From NCBI GenBank assembly GCA_045588365.1, contig JAZNEB010000012.1, forward strand, positions 1,245 through 65,244: a stretch of DNA of 64,000 nt, in the 5' to 3' direction. The position numbers and the translations under genes are program-made. The notes under the pieces were generated by a model. That model was not told the DNA's origin. It made no database searches and saw nothing but the letters and a program-made list of their open reading frames with translations. Numbering within the stretch: position 1 is the first letter of the stretch; each line of letters begins with the position of its first letter. Below, piece by piece: positions 2,646 to 38,780 of this stretch. The DNA comes from Clostridia bacterium (lineage in GTDB: Bacteria > Bacillota > Clostridia > CAKSNL01 > HGM11501).

Positions 2646-3580
2646 TTGTCATTTTCTCCTTCTTCGGGCAGGACAGGTGTCATTGCGGCAATGGCAATTT
2701 CAATCATGGAATCGTCAGGCTCTTTCGTGGTTATTTTCTGAAGCAAAAGTCCGGGTTTGCTTAAAAGGGCAACTATTTTACTTTCGCTTCTGCCAGCCCA
2801 TTTTATAATTTCAAAGGAAACTCCTGCAATAAAGGGAAGACATAAAAGCTTTATTATGATACGAAGCCATATAACGTCTACCTTTACAAATGCGAAAACC
2901 AGAATACTGATTAAAAGAACAAAAACAAGGAAGCTGGTTCCGCAACGGGGGTGGAGTCTGCTCTGGTTACGGCAGTTTTCCACGGTAAGGGGAAGACCTG
3001 CCTCGTAGCAATAAATTGTCTTATGCTCTGCGCCGTGATACATAAATACACGCTTTACGTCCTTTTGCATGGTGCATAAAAGAATGTAGCCCAAAAAGAT
3101 TACAATTCTCGAAACACTTTCGGCAATGCTCCTGATAACTGCTATTGTGTCGGAAGATGCAGATTTGAATAAAAAGGCAATTCCCTCACCAATAAGCATG
3201 GGGAGGAGGAAGAAAAGTCCTATGCTCATTAAAATGGCAAGTACAACAGAAAAGTAAATTACAACATTTTTAAGGTTGTCCCCGAATTTCTTTGAAAGCC
3301 ATGCTTCAAATTTTGATTCGGATTCCTCTTCCTCTATATCCACAAATTCAGCACTCCATAAAAGGGCCTTCATGCTTGTAACCATAGAAACAAAAAAAGC
3401 AATAATTCCTCTTATAACGGGGATTTTACTCCATAAACTTTTATTTATCTCTATATCGGAAACCTTAAGCTCAATTTCTCCGTCGCTTTTTCTTACGGCA
3501 ATGCCCATTTTGGACGGGCCTCTCATCATAATTCCTTCAATCAGGGCAGAACCGCCTATTGAGGTTTTTTTCTTTTCCAT
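2639..3580 (-). CDS. DUF1385 family protein (YqhQ-like membrane-associated protein commonly encoded next to prmC)
   Basis: N-terminus GGSALIEGIMMRGPSKMGIAVR and motif YHGAEHK, followed by several TM helices. Its start overlaps prmC by 7 nt, consistent with an operon. Confidence 0.65.
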   Translation of the reverse strand: MEKKKTSIGGSALIEGIMMRGPSKMGIAVRKSDGEIELKVSDIEINKSLWSKIPVIRGIIAFFVSMVTSMKALLWSAEFVDIEEEESESKFEAWLSKKFGDNLKNVVIYFSVVLAILMSIGLFFLLPMLIGEGIAFLFKSASSDTIAVIRSIAESVSRIVIFLGYILLCTMQKDVKRVFMYHGAEHKTIYCYEAGLPLTVENCRNQSRLHPRCGTSFLVFVLLISILVFAFVKVDVIWLRIIIKLLCLPFIAGVSFEIIKWAGRSESKIVALLSKPGLLLQKITTKEPDDSMIEIAIAAMTPVLPEEGENDKW

Positions 3581-3786
3581 GGCAATTTCCTTTCATTAAA
3601 TAATAAGCCGTTTGACTGAATTTATTATATCAAAAAAACGTGATTTTTTCAAGGTTTATTTGGTAAATGACGAAAAAAACATAAATTTTTCTGAGCATAT
3701 AGTTTTTTTTGTGTATTATGTTCAAAGGCTATATAAGTATTTTATACTAAACAACCAAAAAAAAATAAAATTCGCTAAAATTTCTA

Positions 3787-3815
3787 TTGATTTTTTGTGC
3801 AAAGTGGTGTATAAT
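3787..3815 (+). promoter_or_regulatory. sigma-A type promoter for the large-SBP transporter locus
   Basis: TTGATT -35 (3787-3792), 17-nt spacer, TGTATAAT extended -10 (3808-3815). It lies in a 340-nt AT-rich intergenic region and is followed by a leader of about 105 nt before RBS aggagg. Confidence 0.5.
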
Positions 3816-3922
3816 AAAGTACATGTCTTTTTGCCATTGTAAAAAATGCTTAAATTTTCCAATTATTGGCAAAAGTTACAATAAGATGCGGCAAAAGTAC
3901 TTAACTTACAGGAGGTTTTAAA

Positions 3923-6900
3923 ATGACGGCAAGAAAAGTTACGGCAGTATTACTTGCGATGCTCATGGCGGCAACGGGATTTACCGCTATGGTCGGAAAT
4001 GATGCTTACGCCAGTGCAAGCACTACGTTTAACGCTCTGGAATTTGACTATGACAGAAACAACGTATATGCTGGTTTTCTGGAAAAGCACTCAGATGCGG
4101 AAAGACCCGAGGCGGAGGTTTTGGTTTTGGGTTCCGCATTTGACAGTGCGAAAAGCTCTGCAGGTGTTACTGCAATAGAAAGCTTTGACGGAATTGACAA
4201 CGTTGCAGAAATAATGGAGGATGTTCAGAAGGCGGTATATGAGGTTAATGTACCTGAAGCCGGCTTATATAACATTTCCTATTCCGTAAGAAGCCATGAA
4301 GCCATTAAGAACGATATTGAATTCGGAGTTATGATAAACGACGAATATCAGTACAACGAGTCTATGGCTATAAGATCTTTCAGAGGCTTTAAAAACAAGG
4401 ATGAGGATTTCGGTATTGAAGCTGATGAAAACGGAAATCTTACGGCTAAGTTTTTGCAGGATAGAGGTAACGATTTAAGACCCAGACAGGTTAAGGATAT
4501 CAAGTGGAGAACCGAATGGATTTATGATGCTGAGGGACTTATTGAAGCTCCTTTGCTTTTCTACTTTGATGAGGGTGTAAACACCTTGAGCTTTGAAACT
4601 GTGGGCGAGCCCTTTTATCTTGCTGATATAAAAATTGCACAGTTTGTTGAGCCCAAGCCTTATAAAGAAGTTTTAGCAGAATATGAAGCTAAGGGCTACA
4701 AGAGTGTAAATTCTCAGATAAAGATTCAGGCTGAAACAGCAAACGAATTTTCTCATTCATCACTTTACCCCTTATCTGAGAGAAATAATCCTCAGATGGA
4801 ACCCAGCCACACAAGCAAGACCAGACTCAATGCATCAGGCGGTTCTAACTGGGGCAGTGCAAGAAGCTGGCTTAAGTGGACATTCACCGCTCCTGAATCA
4901 GGACTTTATAATCTGGCAATAAAGTTTGAGCAGAGCGACTATGTGGGTATGTTTGCCACAAGAAGCCTTAAGATTGACGGGGAATATCCTTTCCAGGAAA
5001 TGAAGTATCTCCGTTTCGGCTATGATTCAGACTGGCAGTTTTTAATTCCTTCCGATGAAGAAGGCAATCCCTATTACATATATCTTGAAAAAGGTGAGCA
5101 CACAATGCAGATGACAGTAAGCCTTGGCGAAATGGCATCCATTGTTGACAGACTCACAACAGTTGTATATAAGCTTAATAAAGTATACAGCGACGTGGTA
5201 ATGATTGCTTCAACCACTCCTGACCAGTACAGAGACTATTACTATACAAAGAATATCCCGACTTTGGATAGTGATTTGAGATGGGCGAGAGAAGAACTTT
5301 CCTCTATAAAGCAGGAAATTTTGGATATAACCGGAACAGGAAGCAACCAGACTGCTACACTGGAAACCTTTGTTCTTCAGCTTGATGCTCTTATTGCAAA
5401 GCCTGAGGGCTTCAGCAAGAGACTTGAAACCTTCAAAAACAATATAGCATCCATCAGCCAGTGGATTATAGACAATAAAAATCAGCCCATAAAAATTGAC
5501 TATTTTGTTCTTGGCGGAGATAACATGGAGCTTGAAGGAGCTAAGGCGGGATTTTTCAAGAGCCTTTGGTCCGGAACAAAGAGCTTCTTCGCATCCTTCT
5601 ATGAAGACTATGATGTTATAGGCGCAGTTGAGGGAGACGGAAGAAAGGTTAAGGTATGGATAAATACCGGCCGTGATCAGATAAACATTATAAATAATAT
5701 GATAAATGACGAATTTACTCCCGAGACAGGGGTAAACGTTCAGCTTGAGCTTGTACAGGGTAACATGATTGAGGCTACACTTGCAGGAAAAGGACCCGAC
5801 GTTGCTCTTATGATTGCATCTGACCAGCCTGTAAACTATGCTATACGAAATGCTCTTGTTGACCTTTCAAAGTTCGGTGAAATGGACTTGGACGGCGACG
5901 GAGTTAATGAAGTAAAATCCTTTGCTGATGTATTTGGAAGATTCCAGCATCAGAATTTTGAAGCCTTTGCATTCCAGATGAACGAGCATAAGGACGAGGA
6001 AAAGGAAAAAGAAGGCGAAATCTGGATCTGCGAAGTATGCGGAACAGAAAATAACCAGGGTATATGCACAACCTGTAACTACAAGAAATACTATGCATAT
6101 TATGCAATTCCCGAAACCCAGACCTTTAATATGATGTTCTACCGTAAGGACATTTTGGCGCAGCTTGGTCTCGGTGTTCCCGAAACATGGGATGATTTCT
6201 TCGCACTTTTACCCGTAATCAGAAGAAACAATCTGCAGATAGGTGTTCCTGCTGCCACAATGTATCAGATTTTGCTCTATCAGTATGACGGGGCTTACTA
6301 TACAGAAGACAAGCACGCATCAGGCTTTACCACACCTGAAGCAGAGGCGGCATTTATAAAGGTATCCGACTGTTTCGTAAAATACGATTTCCCCATTTCC
6401 TTCGACTTCTATACAAGATTCAGAAGCGGTGAAATGCCCATATCCATTCAGCCCTATACTCAGTACAACAGAGTTAATGCGGCAGCACCTGAAATTCAGG
6501 GACTCTGGGATATGACCAAGGTACCAGGAACAATCAGAGAAGACGGAAGAATGGACAACAGCCAGATAGTTACATCTGCAGGATGCATCATGTTTAATAA
6601 GACAGAGGATAAGGATGCAGCCTGGGCATTTATAGAATGGTACACAAGAGACGATATGCAGACCCGTTACGGTGAAGAACTTGAATCCGTAATGGGTGCG
6701 GCAGGACGTTATGCGGCTGCAAACTTAAAGGCATTCAACTCCCTTGCATGGACAAGAGAACAGACAAAGCTTCTGACAGAACAGATGGAACAGATTGTCG
6801 GTGTACCCGAGGTTCCCGGAAGCTATCTTACAGCAAGAACAATTACACTGGCATTCAACGATGCATATATTGAACTTGAAAATCCCTATAAGGCTCTGGC

Positions 6901-6964
6901 AGAAAGAACAGAGGACTTAAATGAGGAAATCACAAGAAAATATGCAGAATTCGGATTATATTGA
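3923..6964 (+). CDS. very large extracellular solute-binding protein (SBP_bac_1-like C-terminal half) with an N-terminal tandem beta-sandwich region and an internal zinc-ribbon insertion
   Basis: Signal peptide ending AYA/SAS with no lipobox Cys. The N-terminal roughly 500 aa contain two repeats of a PE(A/S)GLYN(I/L) motif. The C-terminal roughly 500 aa resemble family-1 sugar SBPs (KVWINTGRDQINII, GKGPDVALM). A CEVCGTENNQGICTTCNYKKYY insertion is present. Permease genes follow immediately. Confidence 0.65.
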   Translation: MTARKVTAVLLAMLMAATGFTAMVGNDAYASASTTFNALEFDYDRNNVYAGFLEKHSDAERPEAEVLVLGSAFDSAKSSAGVTAIESFDGIDNVAEIMEDVQKAVYEVNVPEAGLYNISYSVRSHEAIKNDIEFGVMINDEYQYNESMAIRSFRGFKNKDEDFGIEADENGNLTAKFLQDRGNDLRPRQVKDIKWRTEWIYDAEGLIEAPLLFYFDEGVNTLSFETVGEPFYLADIKIAQFVEPKPYKEVLAEYEAKGYKSVNSQIKIQAETANEFSHSSLYPLSERNNPQMEPSHTSKTRLNASGGSNWGSARSWLKWTFTAPESGLYNLAIKFEQSDYVGMFATRSLKIDGEYPFQEMKYLRFGYDSDWQFLIPSDEEGNPYYIYLEKGEHTMQMTVSLGEMASIVDRLTTVVYKLNKVYSDVVMIASTTPDQYRDYYYTKNIPTLDSDLRWAREELSSIKQEILDITGTGSNQTATLETFVLQLDALIAKPEGFSKRLETFKNNIASISQWIIDNKNQPIKIDYFVLGGDNMELEGAKAGFFKSLWSGTKSFFASFYEDYDVIGAVEGDGRKVKVWINTGRDQINIINNMINDEFTPETGVNVQLELVQGNMIEATLAGKGPDVALMIASDQPVNYAIRNALVDLSKFGEMDLDGDGVNEVKSFADVFGRFQHQNFEAFAFQMNEHKDEEKEKEGEIWICEVCGTENNQGICTTCNYKKYYAYYAIPETQTFNMMFYRKDILAQLGLGVPETWDDFFALLPVIRRNNLQIGVPAATMYQILLYQYDGAYYTEDKHASGFTTPEAEAAFIKVSDCFVKYDFPISFDFYTRFRSGEMPISIQPYTQYNRVNAAAPEIQGLWDMTKVPGTIREDGRMDNSQIVTSAGCIMFNKTEDKDAAWAFIEWYTRDDMQTRYGEELESVMGAAGRYAAANLKAFNSLAWTREQTKLLTEQMEQIVGVPEVPGSYLTARTITLAFNDAYIELENPYKALAERTEDLNEEITRKYAEFGLY

Positions 6965-6979
6965 TAGGAGGGATGGATT

Positions 6980-7915
6980 TTGTTTACTAAAAAGAAAAAG
7001 GAAGGCTCTCTTCCTAACGAAAACGTAAAAAATACGTGGCTTGAAATAAAGAAGAATAAATCCAACTACCTTCTTGTAGCACCGTACATGATAATTTTCT
7101 TGATTTTTACGGTTATCCCCGTAATTTCCTCAATGGTTTTGAGCTTTACATACTTTAACCTTCTTGAATTTCCCGAATGGAGAGGCTGGCTTAACTATCA
7201 GAGACTTTTCCTTGAGGACGACATATTCATGATTGGTCTTAAGAATACACTGATGTTCGCATTCATTTTAGGTCCCACAAGCTATGTGCTGTGCTTCCTT
7301 TTTGCATGGCTGGTAAATGAATTGCCCCCGAAAATCAGAGCATTTATGACGCTTTTATTCTACGCTCCTTCAATATGCTCTTCGGTTTACACAATCTGGC
7401 TTTTCATATTCAGCGGCGACGCCAATGGTCTTGTGAATTCCTACCTTTTGAAATTGGGTTGGATAAATAAACCTATTCAGTTCTACACAGATACGAATTA
7501 TAACGTAACCATTATTATAGTAATTCAGTTGTGGCTCAGCTTGGGAACCAGCTTCCTTTCATTTATCGCAGGTTTCCAGTCTCTGGACAAGAGCTATTTT
7601 GAGGCAGGTGCCATCGACGGTATCAAAAACCGTTTCCAGGAGCTTATATACATAACAATTCCTGAAATGAGACCTCAGATGATGTTCGGTGCCGTAATGC
7701 AGATTTCATCATCCTTCAGCGTTGGTCCCATCTGCCGAACATTGGGTGGTTTCCCCAGTACGGACTATTCGCTCCGTACCATAACCACACATATTTACGA
7801 CTATGGTCAGACCCGTTACGAAATGGGTTATGCATCAGCTATTGCATTTTTCCTTTGCGTAATGATGATAGTAACAAGAAACCTGATGGCAAAACTCATC
7901 AGGGTAGATGATTAA
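6980..7915 (+). CDS. carbohydrate ABC transporter permease (MalF/LplB-like)
   Basis: Six TM helices and an EAA-like loop (EAGAIDGIKNRFQELIYITIPEMRP). TTG start at 6980 lies 7 nt downstream of RBS aggaggg. Confidence 0.85.
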   Translation: MFTKKKKEGSLPNENVKNTWLEIKKNKSNYLLVAPYMIIFLIFTVIPVISSMVLSFTYFNLLEFPEWRGWLNYQRLFLEDDIFMIGLKNTLMFAFILGPTSYVLCFLFAWLVNELPPKIRAFMTLLFYAPSICSSVYTIWLFIFSGDANGLVNSYLLKLGWINKPIQFYTDTNYNVTIIIVIQLWLSLGTSFLSFIAGFQSLDKSYFEAGAIDGIKNRFQELIYITIPEMRPQMMFGAVMQISSSFSVGPICRTLGGFPSTDYSLRTITTHIYDYGQTRYEMGYASAIAFFLCVMMIVTRNLMAKLIRVDD

Positions 7916-7931
7916 GAAGGGAGGAACAAAA

Positions 7932-8900
7932 ATGTCAAACACAGCAATAATGTCATCCGGAAATACGGAAGTTAATGTAAATGATCTTCCCGAAGAATTA
8001 CGTGAACATGTTCCTCCGAAAAAGATGAGGGTGAGAAAAAAGAGAGTAAACCGTTCAGCAGGCGGCGACACTTTAGTTGTATTTTTCCTCGTTATAATGG
8101 CACTTTTCATGGGCGTTCCCCTTTACTATTCAATAGTATGTGCCTTTAAGCCCTTGAACGAGCTTTTCATTTTCCCTCCCAGATTTTACGTAGTACAGCC
8201 CACTTTATCAAATTTCAAGCAGGTATTTGACCTGGCGTCTGATTTGTGGGTACCCTTCTCACGTTACGTATTTAACAGTATTTTCGTAAGTATAACTTCA
8301 ACTGTGGGACACGTTATTTTAGCTTCAATGGCTGCGTATCCCCTTGAAAAGGCGAAGTTCCCGGGTTCTAAGGGAATGTTCCAGCTTGTACAGATTACAC
8401 TTCTTTTCACAGGCGGAACCATGGCTGTTCCTCAGTATGTTGTAATGGCTCTTTTGGGCTTTGTTAACTCTTACTGGGCGCTTATACTTCCTGCAGTTGG
8501 CTCAAGCCTCGGTCTTTTCCTTATGAAGCAGTTTATGAGAGGTATTCCCGATTCAATGCTTGAAGCAGCGAAAATTGACGGAGCTAACGAATTTACAATT
8601 TTCTGGAAATTGGTTATGCCCAACGTTAAGCCTGCATGGCTTACACTTTCAATTTTCTCTTTCCAGGGTATATGGAACAATACCGGTAATAACTTTATAT
8701 ATTCGGAAGAACTTAAAATGCTTCCCACTGCCTTAAACCAGATTTATGCGGCTGATGCTGCAACAGGTGTAGGTAACGTTGCCCGTCAGGGTGCAGCGGC
8801 AGCGGTTGCGCTCATTTTGATGATTCCGCCGATTATATTCTTTGTTATAACACAGAGTAATGTCATCGAAACCATGGCATTCTCCGGTATGAAAGACTGA
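7932..8900 (+). CDS. carbohydrate ABC transporter permease (MalG/LplC-like)
   Basis: EAA motif EAAKIDGANEFTIFWKLVMP. Internal ATG at 7932 is preferred over 7908 because of the upstream RBS gaagggagg. Confidence 0.85.
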   Translation: MSNTAIMSSGNTEVNVNDLPEELREHVPPKKMRVRKKRVNRSAGGDTLVVFFLVIMALFMGVPLYYSIVCAFKPLNELFIFPPRFYVVQPTLSNFKQVFDLASDLWVPFSRYVFNSIFVSITSTVGHVILASMAAYPLEKAKFPGSKGMFQLVQITLLFTGGTMAVPQYVVMALLGFVNSYWALILPAVGSSLGLFLMKQFMRGIPDSMLEAAKIDGANEFTIFWKLVMPNVKPAWLTLSIFSFQGIWNNTGNNFIYSEELKMLPTALNQIYAADAATGVGNVARQGAAAAVALILMIPPIIFFVITQSNVIETMAFSGMKD

Positions 8901-8916
8901 TAGGAGGGGAGAAAAT

Positions 8917-11025
8917 ATGAAACTTAAAAGTAAAAATTTATTGAAGATTTTTTCCTGCCTCTTACTGGTAGCAAGTATTTTATCAGGTTCGTTACTTATT
9001 CATGCGGAAGATCCCTATGGTGGTTATAACTATAACTACTACGGTAAAGCTCCTTCTCCCAACGGATACATTCCTGTTTCATCATTAAACGGAAATGAAT
9101 GGGGAGTAGGATACCTTAAGGCCCCTGCAGATATTTACGTTGACACAGAGGATAATCTTTATATTCTTGACACAGGAAACGGTCGTATCATCAAAACCGA
9201 CTCCGAGCTTAATCTTATAAAGGTTATTGATACTTTCACAACCCAGGACGGGGAAGCTTCTCCCCTTAAAAATCCTTTGGGTATATGTGTAACTCCCGAC
9301 GGAGAAATATATATCTGTGATACTGAAAATAACAGAGTTATAATTACAGACCAGGACGGTGTTATAAAAAGAACCTACTTAAAGCCTGTTACTGACCTGG
9401 TGGCAGAATCTTTGGTTTTCAAACCCAAAAAGATTGAAGTAACAGCAACCGGAGATATGTACGTACTGGCAGACAACATTGTTGACGGTGCCATGATTAT
9501 CGCAGAAAACGGTGAATTCGGCGGCTTTTTCGCAACTGATGCCGTAAACGTAACATCTGACGTTTTGAAGATTATGTTCTACAAAACCTTCATGACCGAA
9601 GAGCAGGTTAAGAAAATGATGTCCATTCAGCCCGTTCCCTTCGATAATATGTATCTTCAGGGAGACTTCTTATATACAGCTACTGTATATCTGAGAAATA
9701 AGGACCAGATAAGAAAAGTAAACCCTGCAGGAAAGAACCTTTTCCAGGATAATGAATATGGTGAATCATACATCGGCGGTGTAGGTGGCAGCGGATTTGA
9801 ACAGGCTGCCTTTACAGACGTAAATGTAAGCGAAAAGGGATTTTTCTATGCACTTGACAAAAACTTCTGTAAGGTGTTTGTTTACAATCAGGATAACGAG
9901 CTTCTTATGATATTCGGCGGTGATGACAAAAAATTAGGACATTTTATAAATCCCGTTGCAATAGAATCCATAGGCGATACAATTCTTATTTTAGATGGAA
10001 GCAAAAACAATATAACTGTTTTTGAACCCACATACTATGGTGAGCAGATAATGCTCGGCTCTTATATGTATGAGCACGGTATGTATGAAAATGCAATCGG
10101 TCCCTGGAAAGAGGTACTTAAGCTCAACACCAATTCGGAGCTTGCATATAAGGGTATAGCGAGAGCTGAATACTTAAAGGGCGATTACCTTGAAGCTATG
10201 GAGCATTATAAGGCTGCATACGACAGGGAAGGATATTCTGAAGCAAGAGAAAAATACAGAGGCAAATTTATAATGGATAACTTTGCCTGGTTTATGGCGG
10301 CAATAATTGCCATTGCGGTTATCATCTTTGTTTACGGTAAGAACAAAAAGAAGATTTTTGCAAAGATAGGATATAAGACGTTGGCTGAAACAGGCTATGC
10401 GGGAATGGCTAAGTGGAAGTATCCTTTCTATAATCTTTTACATCCCAGCGTTGGTATGAGCGAAATGAGATATAATAAGAAGGAATTTTTGCCCTATGCT
10501 TTATTATCTTCTTTCCTCTGGTATGCATCTGTGGTAATTTTGAGACAGTACGAGGATTATATCTTTAACAACACCAACACAAACAACATAAATATATTTA
10601 TGATACTGGCAACAACCATTGGAATTTTGCTGGTGGGATGTATTGCTAACTGGGCAATTACAACCCTGGTTGAAGGTAAGGGTACATTCAAGAACATATT
10701 CATTTATGCATCCTATGCCTTAATTCCCACTACAATAGCAAACCTGCTTGTAACAGTTCTGAGCCAGTTCATGGTAGAGAACGAAGCGGTTTTCGTTAAT
10801 ACCATTTTCTTTGTGGCTTACGCATGGACTGCACTTTTGATGTTCATGGGTATGATTACAGTACATCAGTTCACCACTAAAAAGGCAATTTTAATGACCT
10901 TGCTTACTGCAGTTGGTATGCTTGTAATAGTATTCCTTCTGATGCTTTTGGTTGTATTATACAGCCAGGTATCCACATTCGTTACAACAGTAAGCTACGA
11001 ATTGTTCTATAAGTTCTCATTATAA
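8917..11025 (+). CDS. NHL-repeat beta-propeller / TPR / Yip1-domain multi-pass membrane fusion protein
   Basis: Signal/TM at the N-terminus. Repeated NHL-like blades (YILDTGNGRIIKTD, IYICDTENNRVIITDQDG, ILILDGSKNNITVFE). A TPR-like stretch (AYKGIARAEYLKGDYLEAMEHYKAAYD). Then about 6 TM helices with Yip1-like topology. Confidence 0.55.
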   Translation: MKLKSKNLLKIFSCLLLVASILSGSLLIHAEDPYGGYNYNYYGKAPSPNGYIPVSSLNGNEWGVGYLKAPADIYVDTEDNLYILDTGNGRIIKTDSELNLIKVIDTFTTQDGEASPLKNPLGICVTPDGEIYICDTENNRVIITDQDGVIKRTYLKPVTDLVAESLVFKPKKIEVTATGDMYVLADNIVDGAMIIAENGEFGGFFATDAVNVTSDVLKIMFYKTFMTEEQVKKMMSIQPVPFDNMYLQGDFLYTATVYLRNKDQIRKVNPAGKNLFQDNEYGESYIGGVGGSGFEQAAFTDVNVSEKGFFYALDKNFCKVFVYNQDNELLMIFGGDDKKLGHFINPVAIESIGDTILILDGSKNNITVFEPTYYGEQIMLGSYMYEHGMYENAIGPWKEVLKLNTNSELAYKGIARAEYLKGDYLEAMEHYKAAYDREGYSEAREKYRGKFIMDNFAWFMAAIIAIAVIIFVYGKNKKKIFAKIGYKTLAETGYAGMAKWKYPFYNLLHPSVGMSEMRYNKKEFLPYALLSSFLWYASVVILRQYEDYIFNNTNTNNINIFMILATTIGILLVGCIANWAITTLVEGKGTFKNIFIYASYALIPTTIANLLVTVLSQFMVENEAVFVNTIFFVAYAWTALLMFMGMITVHQFTTKKAILMTLLTAVGMLVIVFLLMLLVVLYSQVSTFVTTVSYELFYKFSL

Positions 11026-11042
11026 GAAAGGAGAGTTTTGAT

Positions 11043-13400
11043 ATGAAAAAATATATTTCCTATATGTTAGTGTTTACTCTCCTTGTATCCTTAATGACAG
11101 GATTATTGGTGAGTGCTGATGAAACACAGGAAGCGGAAACTACAAATGCTTCAGTATTGAATCCTGAAATCATAGAAGCATTTATGGGAAACGTAAAAGC
11201 TAAAACTCCCGATAACAAGAGCATTGAAGACATTTTTGAGCTTATAGACGAAAATGAAAATCTCGCTCTTTATGCAGTTACCGAAAAAGCAACTGGCAGA
11301 GCGGGAGAAATAGCGCTTTTAGACAAAAATTCGGGCTATGTATGGAGAAGCAATCCCTTGGGAAGCAATGAGGATATAATAGGTAAGGCGTCAGGTCATG
11401 CTTATTACAGAACAAAATCTCAGCTGGTTATTTCCTACGCTTACGGATATAACTTCTTCGATACAAACTCTCACTATGAAAGCGTAATGTCTGATAAGAT
11501 AGAGGTTTTTAAAGAGGATAACTCCGTTAAATTTGTGTACAGATTCAGGGAAGTTGATTTTGTAATTCCTGTAAGATACAGCCTTGACGATGATGCATTT
11601 TCAGCGGAAATTCTCTTGAATGACGAGAAAGCCAAGTTTACCTATGAAATTATAGGTAAGGTAAATGCCGGAGGATTGGGTGAAACCGTCGAGCAGGAAA
11701 TAGAATATAACATAATGGATGTAAAGCTTCTTCCTGCATTCGGTGCTACCAGCTATAATGAAGATGGATATCTTTTCATTCCCGACGGTTCAGGTGCTTT
11801 GATTAACATGAATAACGGAAGAAAGAACATTTCTCAGCCTTATTCAGCGCCTGTTTACGGTAATTATACTGACAGTAAGTCCGAAGACTACAGCAAGGCT
11901 CATGACAGATTTATGCTTCCTGTTTTCGGAACCGTTAAAAATGACGGTCATGCCCTTATGGGCGTTATAAACGACAATGCTTCTGTAGGCTATGTAAACG
12001 CTGAAGTAAGCGGATATGAATCGGCTTATAACAAGGTTTATCCCTCATATCTTCATAAGATAATAAAGGGTTCTGACAAGGAAGGTAACGCTCAGCCCAT
12101 GAGTAAGGAACTGGCAGATCCCGAAAAGAATTTTTCCGTTAAGTATTACTGCTTAAGCGGAGATGAAGCTTCTTATGTTGGTATGGCAAAGCGTTACAGA
12201 AAATATCTTGTGGAAGAAAAGGGAATGACAAAGTCTGACGACCTTAAAGACGGTGCTCTTTTCCTTGATATGTATGCAGGTGTTGAAAAGAAGACAAGCA
12301 TACTTGGTATTCCCTGGAATAAATTTGAAGTAATGACAACCTATAAGGACTTAAGAGATATTTCTGACGATATGACAGAAAACGGCATAGACAGTGTGGT
12401 ATTTAAGTATAACGACTGGATAAAGAAATCAAACAGAAAGAAAATCCAGACAGCTCCGAACTTTGAAAGTTCAATCGGAGGCAAGAAGGGATACTTGAAG
12501 ACCAAGGAATATCTTGACGGCAAAAACATGAGTTTTTATCTTAACATAGACTTCATGAACTACTCTGAGTCAGGAAACGGCTATAACAGACTTTCCGATT
12601 CTGTTAAATATCCCAATCAGGCACCCGCTTATCAGTCAAGCGGAATAACCGCCCATGTAAACATGGGTACCAGATGGAATCTCTTGAAGGGCTATCTGGT
12701 AAAGGAAGCTGCTCTTGAATTTGCTGATAAGTGTGCAAAGTATAATATTGATTCCGTTTCTATTGAAAATATCGGCGGAACAATTTATTCGGATGGCTCC
12801 AATAAGGGCGGACATACAAGAGGCGAATGTATGAATTACTTTGCCGATATAATTTCAGGCTATAAGGAGAGAGGAATAAAGGTTCTTACAACAGAGCCCA
12901 GTGAATATGCGGTTATAAATTCTGATATTTTAATGGATATCCCCTCAAAGGATACTTACGTTGAAATTGCAGACGAGGCAGTTCCTTTCTATCAGATAGC
13001 TGTAAGAGGATACAAGACATATACAACAGAGCCCGTCAATATGTCCAGCAATTACCACAATGTGGTGTTAAATGCAGTGGAAAGCGGCTCAAGCCTTTTA
13101 TACAACCTTGTTGCGGGTGAAACCACAGACCTTAAGGAAACATACCTTAAGTATTTATACAGTTGTAACTATTCCCAGTGGAAAGACAATATAATAGAGA
13201 CCTACAAGGAATATTCAAAGGTAATGGGAGAAGTAAATGGTGCAGATATCGAAAATCACGAAAAGGTAGAAGAGGGAGTCTATAAGACAACCTACGACAA
13301 TGGTGTTTCGGTTTATGTAAACTATAATGACAGTGATTTTGTTACAGCTTCAGGTGAAGTGGTAAAGGCTAACGGATATATTGCAGAAAGGGGTGAGTGA
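11043..13400 (+). CDS. secreted 785-aa protein of unknown function (possibly DUF5696-like)
   Basis: Cleavable signal peptide with no lipobox and no recognisable catalytic motif. It is embedded between the two permease pairs of the locus. Confidence 0.4.
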   Translation: MKKYISYMLVFTLLVSLMTGLLVSADETQEAETTNASVLNPEIIEAFMGNVKAKTPDNKSIEDIFELIDENENLALYAVTEKATGRAGEIALLDKNSGYVWRSNPLGSNEDIIGKASGHAYYRTKSQLVISYAYGYNFFDTNSHYESVMSDKIEVFKEDNSVKFVYRFREVDFVIPVRYSLDDDAFSAEILLNDEKAKFTYEIIGKVNAGGLGETVEQEIEYNIMDVKLLPAFGATSYNEDGYLFIPDGSGALINMNNGRKNISQPYSAPVYGNYTDSKSEDYSKAHDRFMLPVFGTVKNDGHALMGVINDNASVGYVNAEVSGYESAYNKVYPSYLHKIIKGSDKEGNAQPMSKELADPEKNFSVKYYCLSGDEASYVGMAKRYRKYLVEEKGMTKSDDLKDGALFLDMYAGVEKKTSILGIPWNKFEVMTTYKDLRDISDDMTENGIDSVVFKYNDWIKKSNRKKIQTAPNFESSIGGKKGYLKTKEYLDGKNMSFYLNIDFMNYSESGNGYNRLSDSVKYPNQAPAYQSSGITAHVNMGTRWNLLKGYLVKEAALEFADKCAKYNIDSVSIENIGGTIYSDGSNKGGHTRGECMNYFADIISGYKERGIKVLTTEPSEYAVINSDILMDIPSKDTYVEIADEAVPFYQIAVRGYKTYTTEPVNMSSNYHNVVLNAVESGSSLLYNLVAGETTDLKETYLKYLYSCNYSQWKDNIIETYKEYSKVMGEVNGADIENHEKVEEGVYKTTYDNGVSVYVNYNDSDFVTASGEVVKANGYIAERGE

Positions 13401-14425
13401 TGATGGCAGAAAAGGAAAAGACAATTTCTACCGAAAAGGAAGAAGTAGTGCTTGATAGCGAAAGAAAGCCTTCCAAGGAAGAAATCAAAGCGGCAAAGGA
13501 AGCTGCAAAACGTGCAAAATTAAAAAGAAAAGCAGCATCAGCCTTAAGCACAAAGCAGGCGAGAGCGGGCTATTGGTTCATACTTCCCTGGGTAATAGGC
13601 GTTATATATCTCTTCTTGGTGCCCGTTATCACATCTCTTATATACTCCTTCAGTGATGTAAACGTAAGAGCAGGCGGTATCAAGCTTGCTTTTGCCGGAA
13701 TAGATAACTATATCTACATATTCAGAAAGAGTGAAACTTTCCTGCCCGCACTTTTGGACTCACTTAAGGATATGCTCTATCAGGTGCCGATTATAGTGTT
13801 CTTCAGTATGTTTATAGCGCAGATACTTAATCAGAAGTTCGTGGGAAGAACTATTGCGAGAGTAATGTTCTTCCTGCCTGTAATCATCGCATCAGGTGTT
13901 GTTCTGGAAATACTTTCACTTACTGGTATGAGCACAAACGTTTCTCTTGCAGGCTCATCCAACGTATTTACGTTCCAGGAAGAATCGGTAATTCTGAAGG
14001 TTATGAACCAGAGTGGATTAAGCCCCACGATTATCGAATACTTAAAGAGCCTTGTAAGTAATATCTTTGATATAACCTGGAAGAGCGGTATTCAGATTCT
14101 TTTGTACCTCTCTGCACTTCAGGGTATTCCCAAGTCATATTACGAAGTTTCTTCAATGGAAGGGGCTACTGCATGGGAAGAATATTGGAAAATCACATTC
14201 CCCTTACTTTCTCCCATGACATTGGTTTGCGTTGTATATACAATTATCGACTCCTTCACATATTATCAGAATGAAGTTATGCAGCTTATAGACCAGAACG
14301 GTATTGCAACAGGTAATGCAGGTATAGCTTCCGCTATGTCATGGACCTATTTCGTGATTATTGCGGTAATCCTGTTACTTATTGTGAAATTCGTTTTCGC
14401 TAAGACTGTATATACGGAAGAGTAA
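13397..14425 (+). CDS. carbohydrate ABC transporter permease with a Lys-rich cytoplasmic N-terminal extension
   Basis: TM helices and EAA-like loop (SSMEGATAWEEYWKITFPLLSP). The start overlaps the upstream stop (ATGA-type coupling). Confidence 0.8.
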   Translation: MMMAEKEKTISTEKEEVVLDSERKPSKEEIKAAKEAAKRAKLKRKAASALSTKQARAGYWFILPWVIGVIYLFLVPVITSLIYSFSDVNVRAGGIKLAFAGIDNYIYIFRKSETFLPALLDSLKDMLYQVPIIVFFSMFIAQILNQKFVGRTIARVMFFLPVIIASGVVLEILSLTGMSTNVSLAGSSNVFTFQEESVILKVMNQSGLSPTIIEYLKSLVSNIFDITWKSGIQILLYLSALQGIPKSYYEVSSMEGATAWEEYWKITFPLLSPMTLVCVVYTIIDSFTYYQNEVMQLIDQNGIATGNAGIASAMSWTYFVIIAVILLLIVKFVFAKTVYTEE

Positions 14426-14437
14426 GGAGGTGCCGAG

Positions 14438-15496
14438 ATGAAACCTGAGTTATCAAGACTTAACAAAAAAGAGTTTAAGGACGAAATGAAACGCCGTGAA
14501 GAGGAAATGAAAACCAGCGGCAAGGAAAACAGTATAGGCTTAAAGCGTTTCGGCTCTGCATACTTCAAAAAACAGATGTTCCACTTCCTTTATGCACTGT
14601 TTCGTGCCTTCCTTATAATCGGACTTTCTTACCTGGTTTTATATCCTGTATTTAAAATGCTCAGTAATGCATTCAGTGCAGACTATGTAAAATCGGCTAC
14701 AACAATATGGATTCCCAACAATTTCGGACTTCTTAACGTTGAATATGCATACAGATTCTTAAAATATGCAGAAAGCTTCTGGACCAGCGTTAAGGTTTCT
14801 TTGGGAAGTGCCCTTTTGCAGGTTGTATCCGCAGCTATTACAGGTTACGGTTTTGCAAGATTTAAGTTTAAGGGAAGAGGAGTTTTATTTGCACTTGTTA
14901 TATTAACAATGATAGTTCCTCCTCAGACTTATCTTATCTCTATGTTCATGACCTACAGAAAGTTTGACTTCTTTGGTATTTTAGACATCGTTTCACTTAT
15001 TGTAGGCAAGGATCAGAGCATCAACTTAATCGGTACAGCCTGGACAATGTGGATTCCCGCTATTTTGGGTGTAGGCTTAAGAGGCGGACTCTTTATATAC
15101 ATCTTCAGACAGTTCTTCAGAGGAATGAGCAAGGAGCTTGAAGAAGCTGCATATATCGATGGATGCGGTCCTTTCATGACATTCTTAAAAATCATGGTTC
15201 CCAATGCATTATCTTCAGGACTTGTAGTATTCTTGTTCTCACTGGTATGGCATTGGAACGACTACTTTACAACTTCAATGATGTACACAGTTGCCAACAA
15301 GCCCAGACCTCTTACTCTTACTCTTATGGCAGAGTGGAATAAGGTTGGAAATATGCTTAGAGGTGAGGCAGAATTAAATACAAACTACGTGCTCAATGCA
15401 GCTTGTATGCTTGTAATCTTCCCCTTGCTTTTGGTATTTACCGTTGCACAGAAGTTCTTTATTGAAAGTATGGATAAAGTCGGTATTAAAGGCTAA
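14438..15496 (+). CDS. carbohydrate ABC transporter permease (MalG-like)
   Basis: EAA motif EEAAYIDGCGPFMTFLKIMVPNA and multiple TM helices. Confidence 0.85.
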   Translation: MKPELSRLNKKEFKDEMKRREEEMKTSGKENSIGLKRFGSAYFKKQMFHFLYALFRAFLIIGLSYLVLYPVFKMLSNAFSADYVKSATTIWIPNNFGLLNVEYAYRFLKYAESFWTSVKVSLGSALLQVVSAAITGYGFARFKFKGRGVLFALVILTMIVPPQTYLISMFMTYRKFDFFGILDIVSLIVGKDQSINLIGTAWTMWIPAILGVGLRGGLFIYIFRQFFRGMSKELEEAAYIDGCGPFMTFLKIMVPNALSSGLVVFLFSLVWHWNDYFTTSMMYTVANKPRPLTLTLMAEWNKVGNMLRGEAELNTNYVLNAACMLVIFPLLLVFTVAQKFFIESMDKVGIKG

Positions 15497-15498
15497 AA

Positions 15499-15540
15499 TA
15501 AAAAATCACTTCGCAAAGCGAAGTGATTTTTTATTTTAAA
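15499..15540. terminator. bidirectional rho-independent terminator
   Basis: Hairpin aaaaatcacttcgc-aaa-gcgaagtgattttttatttt after the last permease, followed by a second hairpin gcaccaatcttttaagattgatgc. Confidence 0.7.
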
Positions 15541-15587
15541 ATTTCATTGAAAAAAGCACCAATCTTTTAAGATTGATGCTTTTTTCT

Positions 15588-15676
15588 TGGTGCCCGAGAC
15601 CGGAATCGAACCGGTACGACTTTTAACGGTCGCAGGATTTTAAGTCCTGTGCGTCTGCCAGTTCCGCCACTCGGGC
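15588..15676 (-). tRNA. tRNA-Leu (anticodon UAA), class II with long variable arm
   Basis: The reverse complement reads gcccgag...caggaCTTAAAAtcctg...ggttcgattccgg...ctcgggcACCA. It has a 7-bp acceptor stem, anticodon loop cuUAAaa, a long variable arm, a T-loop GGTTCGATTCC and an encoded CCA. Confidence 0.9.
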
Positions 15677-15769
15677 TCACCACAAAAAATAGAATACCAT
15701 AATTTTGGGGATTTGTCAAGAGAATAATGAGAAAAATAAGAAAGAATTTAAGAATAAAAAGGTTTAATA

Positions 15770-15798
15770 TTGACAAAATATTTTTAAGGCTTTATTAT
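15770..15798 (+). promoter_or_regulatory. sigma-A promoter of the FTR-like/trx/rubrerythrin operon
   Basis: TTGACA (15770-15775), 17-nt spacer, TATTAT (15793-15798), RBS ggagg before the ATG at 15833. Confidence 0.55.
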
Positions 15799-15832
15799 AT
15801 AGATAGGAAAAATATTACATTGGAGGATTTAT

Positions 15833-16033
15833 ATGGCAGTAAAGCTTAATCCTGATAAAGAAGTGGTCAGAGTTATAAAGGAAGGGCTTAAGAAAAAAGG
15901 CGGATACTGTCCTTGTATAATAGAAAAAAGCGAAGACACCAGGTGTATGTGCAAGGAATTCAGAGAGCAGATAAAGAATCCTGATTTCGAAGGCTTTTGC
16001 CACTGTATGCTCTACTATAAATCAAAAGATTAA
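15833..16033 (+). CDS. small ferredoxin:thioredoxin reductase catalytic-subunit-like protein (CPC...CxC...CHC cysteine cluster)
   Basis: The 66-aa protein carries CPC, CMC and CHC triads spaced like the 4Fe-4S/disulfide site of FTR catalytic subunits. It sits directly upstream of thioredoxin. Confidence 0.5.
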   Translation: MAVKLNPDKEVVRVIKEGLKKKGGYCPCIIEKSEDTRCMCKEFREQIKNPDFEGFCHCMLYYKSKD

Positions 16034-16044
16034 AGGAGAAAACC

Positions 16045-16353
16045 ATGAGTGAAATAAAAATAACCAAAGATAATTTTGAAGAAATATTAAATCAGGATAA
16101 AAAGGTTTTAATCGATTTCTGGGCAACATGGTGCGGTCCTTGTCAGATGCTTTCGCCCATAATAGAGGAAATTGCAAAGGAAGCAAACGGAGAATATATA
16201 GTGGGAAAGGTAAACGTTGACGAAGAAGGAGAACTGGCAGCGGCATTTAAGGTTCAGAGCATACCTTATCTTGTAGTATTAAAGGATAAAAAAGTTGTAA
16301 AAAATGCCCTTGGGTATATGTCCAAGGAAAAGGTTTTAGAGCTTTTAGATTAA
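16045..16353 (+). CDS. trxA: thioredoxin
   Basis: WATWCGPCQM active site. Length 102 aa. Confidence 0.92.
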   Translation: MSEIKITKDNFEEILNQDKKVLIDFWATWCGPCQMLSPIIEEIAKEANGEYIVGKVNVDEEGELAAAFKVQSIPYLVVLKDKKVVKNALGYMSKEKVLELLD

Positions 16354-16937: not shown

Positions 16938-18020
16938 TTATTTACCGTATCTCATTATATGTTTGTTCTGTGCCTTAACCATACTGATGGTCTGCATGAT
17001 AGCTAAAATGTCGGTATCTGTAATGGGGAACTCAGCTCCGTTTACATAAGAATCGTAAAGATACTGCCAGAAGTCAGCAACGGTAGTTCCGCCTGCAACA
17101 GCTTCAATTTCTTCAGTAACCCAGTTGATGGAGAAGGAGGATTCATAAGTACCGGTTTTTCCGAAAGCGGCACCGGGAGTCTCAGGGCTTGAGATTATTT
17201 CGGGAACAACCTGTTCGGGATCTATATAACGAAGCTTGATTTTGCCATCTTCAAATACGGCAGCACCTCTGTCGCCGAATACTTCGTAATTTCTTCCGCG
17301 TCTTAATGCCTTACCGCCGCTTATGCACATGTTAACAACTCTGTCGTTATCGCCGATGAAACGGATACGCAAATGGTCTTCGCAATCACCGCCTGCGGTT
17401 ACCTGATGAACATAGCTCTGCATTTCAAAGGATGATGTTCCCAAAAGCTTAAGAGACTGGTCAATAATGTGGGGACCCCAGTTAAGAAGCTGTCCGCCAC
17501 CGTATTCTGAAAGTGTCTGCCAGTCATCTCTGTGCTGGAAGTCATTCTGCTCAGTGTTGATTTCATATATTTTGCCAAGCTTACCGGAATTTACTATATC
17601 CATAATCTTCAAAAAAGCGTCCTCAAAGCGTCTCTGCTGATGAACGTAAAGTCTGGGAGCACCTTCTTTGTTGGAGTGCTTATATAAATCAAGAATTTCT
17701 TCATAGGAAATGGTAGCGGGCTTTTCAAGAAGAACATCCTTTCCTGCATTAAGAGCCATAAGGGTATGCTTGTGGTGGTCGCAGGAGCGTGTTGCAACGT
17801 AAACTATATCAATGTCTTCCTGCTTAAGCATTTCCTCGTAATCTGCATAAGTTTTGCAGCCGAAGGTGTTTGCCATTCTTTCACGACGCTCTTCAACAAG
17901 GTCGCAGGCTGCGACGATTTTATACTTATCGGAATAGAATTTGTTGATTTCATCCTTTGCCATATGCCAACCGATTCGGCCGATACCAACGATACCTAAG
18001 TTAATTACTTTCATAATCAA
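16938..18020 (-). CDS. Gfo/Idh/MocA family NAD(P)-dependent oxidoreductase
   Basis: N-terminal Rossmann motif NLGIVGIGRIG and the C-terminal alpha/beta domain typical of the family. Confidence 0.85.
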   Translation of the reverse strand: MIMKVINLGIVGIGRIGWHMAKDEINKFYSDKYKIVAACDLVEERRERMANTFGCKTYADYEEMLKQEDIDIVYVATRSCDHHKHTLMALNAGKDVLLEKPATISYEEILDLYKHSNKEGAPRLYVHQQRRFEDAFLKIMDIVNSGKLGKIYEINTEQNDFQHRDDWQTLSEYGGGQLLNWGPHIIDQSLKLLGTSSFEMQSYVHQVTAGGDCEDHLRIRFIGDNDRVVNMCISGGKALRRGRNYEVFGDRGAAVFEDGKIKLRYIDPEQVVPEIISSPETPGAAFGKTGTYESSFSINWVTEEIEAVAGGTTVADFWQYLYDSYVNGAEFPITDTDILAIMQTISMVKAQNKHIMRYGK

Positions 18021-18028
18021 ATCTCCTT

Positions 18029-18817
18029 TTATTTCATTTCGGGGAATTTCTTTGTTACATTATCAAGACTTCTCTTTAAGCAGTCAAAAGCATCTTCGTC
18101 GTAGGTGTAATCCTGCTCAACCAAAGCGTACTGACAGCCCGCTTCGTAAAGTGCCCTTATGTATGAATCGTAATCCAGCACACCTTCGTATATGGGACGA
18201 AGATAAACGGGAAGGTTGTTAAAGCGTCCGTCCTCGGGAAGAGCCTTATAGTCCTTAAGGTGAACAATGGGAAGACGGCCCTTTAAATCGTGAATTAACT
18301 TAACTACGTCTTTTTCACCGTAAGCAGCCCAGCCTAAATCCAATGTAAAGCCGATGGAATCCTCAGGGAAGTCCTCCGCCATACGCTCAAGAACATCTTT
18401 TCCGTCGAATTTTTCAAACTCAAACCAATGGTTGTGATACATAAGCTTAGCGCCTAAATCACGCATTTTGAGAGCAGCAGGGAGGATGAGCTTTTTAAAC
18501 TCGTTATATCCTTCGAGGCTGCCTCTCATATCGTTGGGCATAGCACCGATGCCGATGTGAGAGCAACCGAAAATCTTGTGGTCAGCAACCACCTTTTCGG
18601 TTTCCTCAACGATTTTTTTGATGTCGATGTGTGTGAGAACACACTTTAAGTCGTTTTCCTGGAGCTTGTCCCGAAGCCACTGGGGCTCGTAAGCGCAGGT
18701 ACCCGATACCTGAACTGTCTTGTAGCCCATTTCGGCCACTTTTTTTAGGGAATCTTCAAAGCCTTCGAGTGTTTGTGTCTTACTGCATACTGTGTAAAGC
18801 TGTGCACCTATTTGCAT
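18029..18817 (-). CDS. sugar phosphate isomerase/epimerase (xylose-isomerase-like TIM barrel)
   Basis: AP-endonuclease 2/XylA-like TIM-barrel motifs. The start is set at the internal MQIGAQLYTV because aaggagg lies 7-8 nt upstream on the minus strand. Confidence 0.75.
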   Translation of the reverse strand: MQIGAQLYTVCSKTQTLEGFEDSLKKVAEMGYKTVQVSGTCAYEPQWLRDKLQENDLKCVLTHIDIKKIVEETEKVVADHKIFGCSHIGIGAMPNDMRGSLEGYNEFKKLILPAALKMRDLGAKLMYHNHWFEFEKFDGKDVLERMAEDFPEDSIGFTLDLGWAAYGEKDVVKLIHDLKGRLPIVHLKDYKALPEDGRFNNLPVYLRPIYEGVLDYDSYIRALYEAGCQYALVEQDYTYDEDAFDCLKRSLDNVTKKFPEMK

Positions 18818-18907
18818 TATACTACCTCCTTGTGTATTTTTATAATACATGTGTATCTTACACTATAAATTTTTTTAAGTCAATAGTAAATTGTTTCGTT
18901 TTTGATA

Positions 18908-34459: not shown

Positions 34460-34487
34460 AAAAGCCGCTATGCGGCTTTTTTATTTG
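34460..34487. terminator. bidirectional terminator between spoVAEB (+) and the phosphodiester glycosidase gene (-)
   Basis: aaagccgc-tat-gcggcttttttatttg. Confidence 0.7.
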
Positions 34488-37153: not shown

Positions 37154-37273
37154 GCTAAATCCTTTCTTTCGGTATAATTATATTTTAATATATAAAGCTC
37201 TTCTTTGCAATAAAAAAATAAAGGAAATGATTGACTATTTTTTCTTTATAGTATAAAATATAATAGGTATATT

Positions 37274-38779: not shown

Positions 38780-38780
38780 A

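Follow-up and report, generated by a model that had tools for sequence, protein, structure and literature searches.

Why would a locus that encodes two pairs of sugar-type ATP-binding cassette (ABC) permeases carry, between these pairs, genes for two large proteins with no obvious role in transport? The question is raised by a 64,000-nucleotide stretch of the Clostridia bacterium contig JAZNEB010000012.1 (assembly GCA_045588365.1, positions 1,245 to 65,244 of the forward strand), hereafter referred to as the 64-kb window, to which all coordinates pertain. The locus spans positions 3923-15496 on the plus strand and encodes, in this order, a giant substrate-binding protein (SBP), permeases P1 and P2, a 702-amino-acid (aa) membrane protein that combines NHL, TPR and Yip1 domains, a 785-aa protein of the DUF5696 family, and permeases P3 and P4. 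The original prediction, made from the nucleotide sequence, listed seven co-directional genes at these positions, in exact agreement with our open reading frame (ORF) calls, and proposed that they may encode a polysaccharide capture/import machine rather than a textbook CUT1 transporter. The cassette to which the locus belongs has been annotated before, in Caldicellulosiruptor; the present version has seven genes and no second SBP. On balance, this cassette appears to be an ancient, widespread device of Bacillota for the capture, processing and import of complex glycans at the cytoplasmic membrane.

Conservation of the cassette among Bacillota

A scan of one genome per species yielded at least 588 confirmed DUF5696 loci, and the 80 best of these were used for locus comparisons. 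The order giant SBP-P1-P2-NHL/TPR(-)Yip1-DUF5696-P3-P4 is complete in 68 of the 80 loci, and 12 are truncated by contig ends in a manner compatible with the same order. In all 80, the permease pairs flank the NHL/Yip1 and DUF5696 genes, even where protein identity falls to about 25%, so that the question of whether the genes for the 702-aa and 785-aa proteins are conserved beside ABC permeases has a clear positive answer. The seven cassette proteins diverge in step across relatives, and the P1 and P2 orthologues hold the same position across the loci. The hosts include Paenibacillus, Cohnella, Bacillus, Lederbergia, Oscillospiraceae, Lachnospiraceae, Ruminococcus and Ruminiclostridium, and also Caldicellulosiruptor.

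A second SBP, of normal size, directly adjoins the cassette in 49 of the 63 loci with full flanks. Gram-positive SBPs usually are lipoproteins, and a lipobox is present in 47 of these 49 small SBPs, whereas none was matched in 63 of the 69 giant SBPs; the 1013-aa SBP of the window has no lipobox either. The giant SBP without a lipobox, pointed out in the original prediction, thus represents a family trait, and its conservation, along with that of the accessory pair, sets the cassette apart from a textbook CUT1 transporter.

Two cassettes per genome were detected in Paenibacillus spongiae, Paenibacillus sp. LHD-117 and UMGS856. In P. spongiae (CP091430; loci L081 and L084), an MsmK-type ATPase gene (ABC_tran + OB_MalK + TOBE_2) is located directly upstream of each of the two paralogous cassettes, one of which includes a small SBP between P2 and the NHL/Yip1 gene. 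One of these cassettes is flanked by SIS and BcrAD_BadFG sugar-metabolism genes, and the other by a gene for a 1565-aa protein of carbohydrate-binding module (CBM) family 9. Seven loci of the Oscillospiraceae/Ruminococcaceae type (L035, L039, L043, L044, L048, L056 and L068) carry two extra co-directional genes between P3 and P4, encoding proteins of about 347 and 801 aa without a Pfam match.

The cassette in Caldicellulosiruptor

The assumption that this cassette had previously gone unnoticed did not survive the literature search. The same arrangement is known in Caldicellulosiruptor as the operon xloEFG-X-GH129-axoFGE of the xylan degradation locus (XDL), which corresponds to Athe_0174-0181 in C. 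bescii and Csac_2419-2412 in C. saccharolyticus (Rodionov et al. 2021, PMC8579813). In that account, X is Athe_0177, an "NHL repeat-containing protein", and Athe_0178 is labelled GH129, that is, a member of glycoside hydrolase (GH) family 129. All eight genes of C. bescii are induced on xylan and Avicel, Athe_0177 by about 4.4 log2-fold (PMC8579813 supplement), and two further papers agree with this account of the C. bescii cassette (PMC5658599 and PMC12285236). Athe_0181, the second SBP, is described in work cited by PMC10492685 as a non-catalytic protein that promotes lignocellulose hydrolysis. The assignment of the Caldicellulosiruptor cassette to xylan comes from transcriptomics and regulon reconstruction only.

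The 702-aa protein of the window is 36% identical to the cluster that holds Csac_2416 (E = 2e-125), and the contigs with that NHL protein encode a 951-aa SBP, two permeases, the NHL/TPR/Yip1 protein, DUF5696, two more permeases, a 594-aa SBP and a GH43/CBM6 enzyme. The giant SBP shares 34% identity over 978 aa with the 951-aa SBP of locus L082, which occupies the XloE/Csac_2419 position, and the DUF5696 proteins share 29% identity over 717 aa. Thus, gene order and families are common to the window locus and the XDL cassette for seven of the eight genes, but AxoE, the second SBP encoded by the eighth gene, has no counterpart in the window copy. Furthermore, GH43/GH10 xylanases are encoded downstream in the XDL, whereas none lie downstream of the window copy, for which an XynR/AraR context is not evident. 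In the literature searched, no paper names DUF5696 and only the Caldicellulosiruptor papers treat the cassette; no paper found mentions how widely and strictly it is conserved, or the invariant pair of accessory genes.

Components of the cassette

The giant SBP (3923..6964), analyzed by ORF calling, Pfam, hydropathy and AlphaFold2 modeling, starts with a signal or anchor helix (residues 1-23). In the AlphaFold2 model (predicted local distance difference test score, pLDDT, 87.9), the N-terminal helix is followed by two beta-sandwiches, a set of helices and a MalE-like domain. The sandwiches at residues 66-239 (4118..4639) and 265-399 (4715..5119) align with each other at E = 2e-5, which indicates an internal duplication. 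Their profile (A4) matches the CBM35 structures 2w47 and 2vzp, the CBM6 structures 2cdo and 2y8k and, with the best score, 5x7g, the CBM35 of a cycloisomaltooligosaccharide glucanotransferase (E = 1.3e-8). Pfam detects Golvesin_C in 25 and CBM_35 in 16 of 36 family members, every match being below the curated cut-off. By profile and model, these modules are CBM35/CBM6-like and are predicted to bind glycans. The region at residues ~404-565 (5132..5617) consists of helices (404-429, 448-470, 475-492, 494-520 and 544-565) and is conserved in the family alignment (A3). Of the roughly 500 aa of duplicated beta-sandwich originally proposed, the two duplicated sandwiches therefore stand, and the remainder, about 170 aa, is helical.

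The MalE-like oligosaccharide-binding domain occupies residues 575-1013 (5645..6961). The Pfam matches to SBP_bac_1 (E = 3.4e-20) and SBP_bac_8 (E = 2.9e-17) are confined to residues ~596-918 of the 1013-aa protein, and the best Foldseek matches of the domain are oligosaccharide SBPs in general (for example, 5ci5, 1urd, 5yse and 3uor). Family comparison revealed an insertion of about 50 aa of the form CxxC...CxxC (ICEVCG...CTTCN) in this domain, at residues ~655-725 (5885..6097). It is limited to the window and loci L002, L003, L004 and L030; L005 shows a variant form, and the 64 remaining giant SBPs do not have it, which makes it a feature of the window clade that the XDL cassette does not share. 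A disulfide knot and a zinc ribbon are candidate structures for this insertion, which sits in an extracytoplasmic domain.

In the 702-aa protein (8917..11025), Pfam finds all three domains of the fusion that the original prediction described, namely, NHL, TPR_16 and Yip1. The protein comprises a signal peptide, an extracytoplasmic NHL part (residues ~30-370), a TPR part (~375-450), a transmembrane (TM) segment (456-474) and the Yip1 domain with five TM segments; accordingly, hydropathy analysis gives an N-terminal signal or anchor and six C-terminal TM segments. The match to Yip1 (PF04893; E = 3.8e-15) covers residues 507-673, and the five hydrophobic segments lie within 524-680. The Protein Data Bank (PDB) entries nearest to the NHL part are PknD-derived "Pizza" propellers and TRIM NHL domains, and NHL propellers of the PknD-sensor and TRIM types serve for binding, not catalysis. 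Among 1.84 billion representatives searched, 1663 relatives scored E < 1e-30, and of the 150 matches listed, most are full-length, at about 700 aa. The extra ~300 N-terminal residues of some longer NHL/Yip1 relatives (P0435, P0459 and others) matched no further Pfam family. NHL/TPR and Yip1 are encoded by a single gene in 33 complete loci and by two adjacent genes in 35, and this fusion or adjacency supports a functional link between the two parts.

The 785-aa protein (11043..13400) had been described as a secreted unknown with no recognizable catalytic motif; it does, however, belong to a named family. Residues 156-779 match positions 5-612 of the 612 positions of the Pfam DUF5696 profile (PF18952; E = 1.7e-149; 499.6 bits against a cut-off of 25.6). 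Behind a signal peptide, the protein consists of an N-terminal beta-sandwich, a (beta/alpha)8 barrel (~400-700) and a C-terminal beta-sandwich. The AlphaFold2 model built from 50 family members (pLDDT 89.3) has the three-domain fold of NagBb (5wzn), an alpha-N-acetylgalactosaminidase from GH129, and of the GH129-like 3,6-anhydro-D-galactosidase DagB/ZgGH129 (5opq, 8rzk), with GH101, GH31 and GH36 structures further down the ranking. The family profile (A1) matches ZgGH129 at E = 2.3e-13 and NagBb at E = 1.7e-5, covering only the N-domain and the first barrel strands. Given this fold and the profile match, the 785-aa protein is a distant GH129-type protein and, judging from its two solved relatives, probably a glycosidase. 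Its most conserved motifs, PDGSGALI, YG.D and lPVFG, sit in an N-domain segment that aligns with the ZgGH129 stretch containing the substrate-contacting residues C198, K208 and N218 and the candidate catalytic D202, although D202 itself aligns with the non-conserved A269. Members of the DUF5696 family begin with a signal peptide or a signal anchor, or in some cases have a lipobox, and hence would act outside the membrane.

P1 (MalF/UgpA type, 311 aa; 6980..7915) and P2 (MalG/UgpE type, 330 aa; 7908..8900) match BPD_transp_1 and, respectively, the NCBIfam models UgpA and GlcT, and UgpE and GlcU. P3 (342 aa; 13397..14425), the start of which overlaps the stop codon of the DUF5696 gene, is a divergent permease of the MalF type, with a weak BPD_transp_1 match (24 bits, under the curated cut-off) and NCBIfam matches to UgpA and MalF; P4 (MalG type, 352 aa; 14438..15496) matches BPD_transp_1 (E = 3e-15) and NCBIfam MalG. 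The EAA-loop motif is readable in all four proteins, in P3 as the variant EVSSMEGA, so that Pfam and motif reading together uphold the identification of four permeases with EAA loops, the weakest being P3. P3 and P4 are well conserved in the window clade, and P3 is 69-87% identical among the relatives that lack the second SBP.

As originally noted, the locus encodes no nucleotide-binding subunit, and an ORF motif search found no MalK/MsmK-type ATPase in the rest of the 64-kb window. The only window ORFs with ABC ATPase motifs (50032-51580; 237-280 aa) follow a Peripla_BP_6/BPD_transp_2 transporter of the branched-chain-amino-acid type; being too short and belonging to that transporter, they were rejected as MsmK candidates. 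No ATPase of MsmK size was found in any of the 80 best loci, where ATPase genes are rarely adjacent; absence of the ATPase gene is the norm for this cassette.

Predicted mechanism and alternative explanations

By hydropathy analysis, the giant SBP and both accessory proteins start with a signal or anchor segment, which marks the SBP, DUF5696 and, of the 702-aa protein, the NHL/TPR part as exported. The giant SBP, which has no lipid anchor, would dock a polymer or a sizeable oligosaccharide on its two CBM35/CBM6-like modules and, through the MalE-like domain, pass an oligosaccharide to the P1P2 translocator. The DUF5696 protein might trim or otherwise process the bound glycan beside the transporters, and P3P4 would import a second product, delivered in most genomes by the dedicated lipoprotein SBP. 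The window clade has no second SBP in cis, so that P3P4 would have to be served by the giant SBP or by one encoded elsewhere. The NHL/TPR/Yip1 protein may be a membrane scaffold or assembly factor that retains both the enzyme and the non-lipidated SBP beside the translocators, a role we assign with low confidence. Finally, a shared MsmK-type ATPase encoded elsewhere would power both translocators. The reading of the locus as a polysaccharide capture/import machine is a reasonable prediction, and we consider it somewhat probable that the cassette as a whole serves complex glycan uptake in this manner across Bacillota.

A more far-reaching version of this scenario is possible but doubtful. Under this version, an obligate complex at the membrane surface is built around the Yip1-anchored NHL/TPR protein and DUF5696 and, as the Gram-positive equivalent of a Sus utilisome, tethers the non-lipidated, CBM-bearing SBP and feeds two translocators at once. 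Such a complex would be substrate-flexible, with paralogous copies used for xylan, mannan, fructan, alpha-glucan and further substrates across hundreds of Bacillota species. Were this the case, the Yip1 domain would be a dedicated ABC-importer assembly factor, and DUF5696 would be a glycosidase with a new activity or else a non-catalytic adaptor derived from a GH.

Several observations weigh against the proposed glycan import mechanism. The roles of the accessory components are predictions, and that of the NHL/TPR/Yip1 scaffold is suggested by analogy with the Bacillus protein YknW alone. No homologue of the second SBP for P3/P4 was found in the 64-kb window, and this SBP is missing in the closest relatives too; no carbohydrate-active enzyme (CAZyme) or regulator was found among the genes flanking the window operon. 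Elsewhere, the flanking CAZymes vary, including GH43/CBM6 in Caldicellulosiruptor, GH113 in Cohnella, GH32, which forms arrays in some Paenibacillus, GH13, GH38, GH26, GH95 and DUF4838, along with the giant CBM9 protein of P. spongiae. Because of this heterogeneity, no single substrate can be deduced from the neighbours, and one fixed linkage specificity of DUF5696 is hard to reconcile with such diversity. The profile-to-PDB alignments of the whole DUF5696 family (A1) and of its C-terminal half (A2) yielded no mapping of the GH129 catalytic residues; they end after barrel strand 2-3, before the catalytic strands, which leaves spacing arguments only. By spacing, the best candidate for the equivalent of NagBb D435 and ZgGH129 D486 is D584 (motif YSD), which is present in the window protein but is Asp in only 82% of 200 members. 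At least 10 proteins linked to the cassette have N, A, S, Y or E instead, some of them encoded in complete cassettes, and the classical barrel strand-end positions are not conserved in DUF5696. The cassette gives the impression of a platform that has been put to use on a range of glycans, and the substrate of the window copy is most likely a plant- or diet-derived heteroglycan.

That the locus is a routine Gram-positive polysaccharide-utilization cluster, in which two ordinary CUT1 importers and an extracellular GH are merely co-regulated and the NHL/Yip1 protein is a dispensable passenger, seems unlikely to us. Every part does have an ordinary family assignment, the Caldicellulosiruptor annotation of Rodionov et al. 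amounts to two CUT1 transporters plus GH129 (PMC8579813), an MsmK-type ATPase is encoded in cis beside both P. spongiae cassettes, and many copies are flanked by CAZymes and by AraC, LacI or histidine-kinase regulators. However, a seven-gene order held to ~25-30% identity in all 80 best loci is far stricter than is usual for such clusters, and a passenger would hardly be encoded in every one of these loci, as the NHL/TPR/Yip1 gene is, or be co-induced with the transporters, as the NHL protein is in C. bescii. The contrast between giant SBPs that mostly lack a lipobox match and second SBPs that nearly always are lipoproteins also speaks against two ordinary importers. By the original prediction's own account, it would be refuted if structural analysis revealed an ordinary GH within a routine polysaccharide utilization locus; the GH129-type fold goes part of the way in this direction.

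Another alternative, to which we assign a low probability, is that DUF5696 is not an enzyme but a GH-derived binding or structural protein within a substrate-agnostic platform, the specificity of which comes from the SBPs and the neighbouring CAZymes. The family has no invariant barrel acid, D644 being conserved in 75% of the members in addition to the imperfectly conserved D584; N, A or S is found at position 584 within complete cassettes; the invariant residues are Pro, Gly and Phe, suggestive of structural roles; and both the highly diverse flanking CAZyme families and the paralogous cassettes within single genomes fit a platform of this kind. Conversely, two other acidic positions are the best conserved (D248, inside the invariant PDGSG motif, with an acidic residue in 198 of 200 members, and E680, with one in 190), the conserved motifs align with the substrate-contacting, candidate catalytic N-domain segment of ZgGH129, and alignment error at 25% identity lowers the apparent conservation. 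Moreover, ZgGH129, with its substrate contacts through C198, K208 and N218, has a catalytic set that differs from that of NagBb and includes an N-domain Asp (PMC5698469), so that poor conservation of the classical site is no proof of inactivity. It also appears highly improbable that the cassette recycles or senses the envelope or exopolysaccharide glycans of its own host, with the PknD-like NHL propeller and the SBP as sensors. Such a function would suit the window clade, where the operon resides among housekeeping genes in conserved synteny, with no adjacent CAZyme or regulator, and the resemblance of the NHL domain to the PknD sensor propeller. It is at odds with the xylan-induced Caldicellulosiruptor cassette that adjoins xylanases, with the plant-glycan degradative CAZymes that flank the cassette in many other genomes, and with the lack of a signalling output domain fused to any component in the Pfam analysis.

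The way in which large glycans are retained and passed on by Gram-positive fibre degraders, which have no outer-membrane machinery, is poorly understood, and the cassette is abundant in rumen and gut Clostridia, soil Paenibacillus and the biofuel organism Caldicellulosiruptor. If the accessory pair is needed for uptake, it would define a new type of auxiliary component of ABC importers, provide a role for a 600-residue domain of unknown function and offer targets for the engineering of hemicellulose uptake. A dispensable pair would instead leave an ordinary glycan-utilization cluster.

Operon organization and genomic context

The seven ORFs are separated by gaps of at most 17 nucleotides (nt) or overlap by 4-8 nt. 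This tight spacing, a conserved promoter and a lone terminator lead us to infer that all seven genes form one operon. The promoter-like site TTGATT-17-TATAAT (3787..3815), with 10 of 12 matches to the consensus, is unremarkable by the scan alone, which found 31 sites against 34 expected by chance, but the promoter sequence TTGATTTTTTGTGCAA...GTGTATAAT is kept upstream of the orthologous operons in loci L002-L005, and the site is the predicted promoter of the operon. An AGGAGG Shine-Dalgarno sequence lies 8 nt ahead of the first ATG, that of the giant SBP gene. The intrinsic terminator (15494..15538) is strong and consists of a 20-bp stem between an A-run and a T-run, and with these runs on either side, it may act bidirectionally. 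The original description of one promoter and one terminator is consistent with these findings. The 5' untranslated region (3829-3898) contains two copies of GGCAAAAGT, 22 nt apart, and an inverted TTTTGCCA; these repeats were rejected as an operator because L002-L005 retain the promoter but not the repeats. In the region 3400-16200, Rfam reports a single tRNA and nothing else, which rules out a riboswitch or leader RNA. This tRNA-Leu (anticodon TAA; 15588-15676, minus strand) converges on the operon just past the terminator.

The neighbours of the operon in the window are housekeeping genes (prmC, DUF1385, thioredoxin, rubrerythrin, polA, murJ and spoIVA), and synteny is conserved in the window clade, with prmC and DUF1385 upstream of the operon. 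Beyond the thioredoxin and rubrerythrin genes, positions 16938-18850 (minus strand) encode a GFO/IDH/MocA oxidoreductase and a xylose-isomerase-like TIM-barrel protein. This pair, on the strand opposite to the cassette, is possibly sugar-related. A 429-aa ORF at 18977-20266 (plus strand) has a weak match to alcohol acetyltransferase (AATase; E = 3.8e-5) as its sole assignment. Farther downstream, an envelope-glycopolymer cluster (34481-41953) encodes an 890-aa NAGPA phosphodiester glycosidase (minus strand), MurJ, a polysaccharide pyruvyl transferase and a 706-aa protein of DUF5693, another large uncharacterized family.

Comparison with known systems

The cassette has in common with the CUT1 importers (MalEFGK2/MsmEFGK; Transporter Classification 3.A.1.1) an SBP_bac_1-type SBP, MalF/MalG-like permease pairs with EAA loops, and the absence of an ATPase gene from the locus, an MsmK-type gene being present in cis in P. 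spongiae. Unlike these importers, it has two translocators per operon, two obligatory extra genes between the permease pairs, and an SBP of about twice the normal size, with two CBM-like modules, a helical region and no lipid anchor. Compared with NagBb and ZgGH129, DUF5696 shares the three-domain architecture at an identity of only 13-15%. Equivalents of NagBb E478 and of ZgGH129 D202, E517 and E531 are not demonstrable in DUF5696, which has an invariant PDGSG where ZgGH129 has PQKQG and differs from both enzymes in its constant position amid ABC permease genes.

YknW of the Bacillus YknWXYZ system is a polytopic membrane protein of the Yip1 family that modulates, and is required for, the assembly of the YknXYZ ABC complex (PMC4887032). 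Similarly to the 702-aa protein, it is a Yip1-domain membrane protein encoded together with an ABC transporter, homology being compared at the level of the Pfam family only. YknWXYZ, however, is a MacB-type exporter with a membrane-fusion protein, and YknW lacks the NHL/TPR ectodomain. The Sus-like utilisomes (SusCD) of Bacteroidota operate in a different envelope, whereas the cassette has no SusC or SusD homologues and relies on ABC-driven import. What the two share, by way of analogy alone, is the concept of a co-encoded apparatus that joins capture by a CBM-type binder, processing by a surface GH and import.

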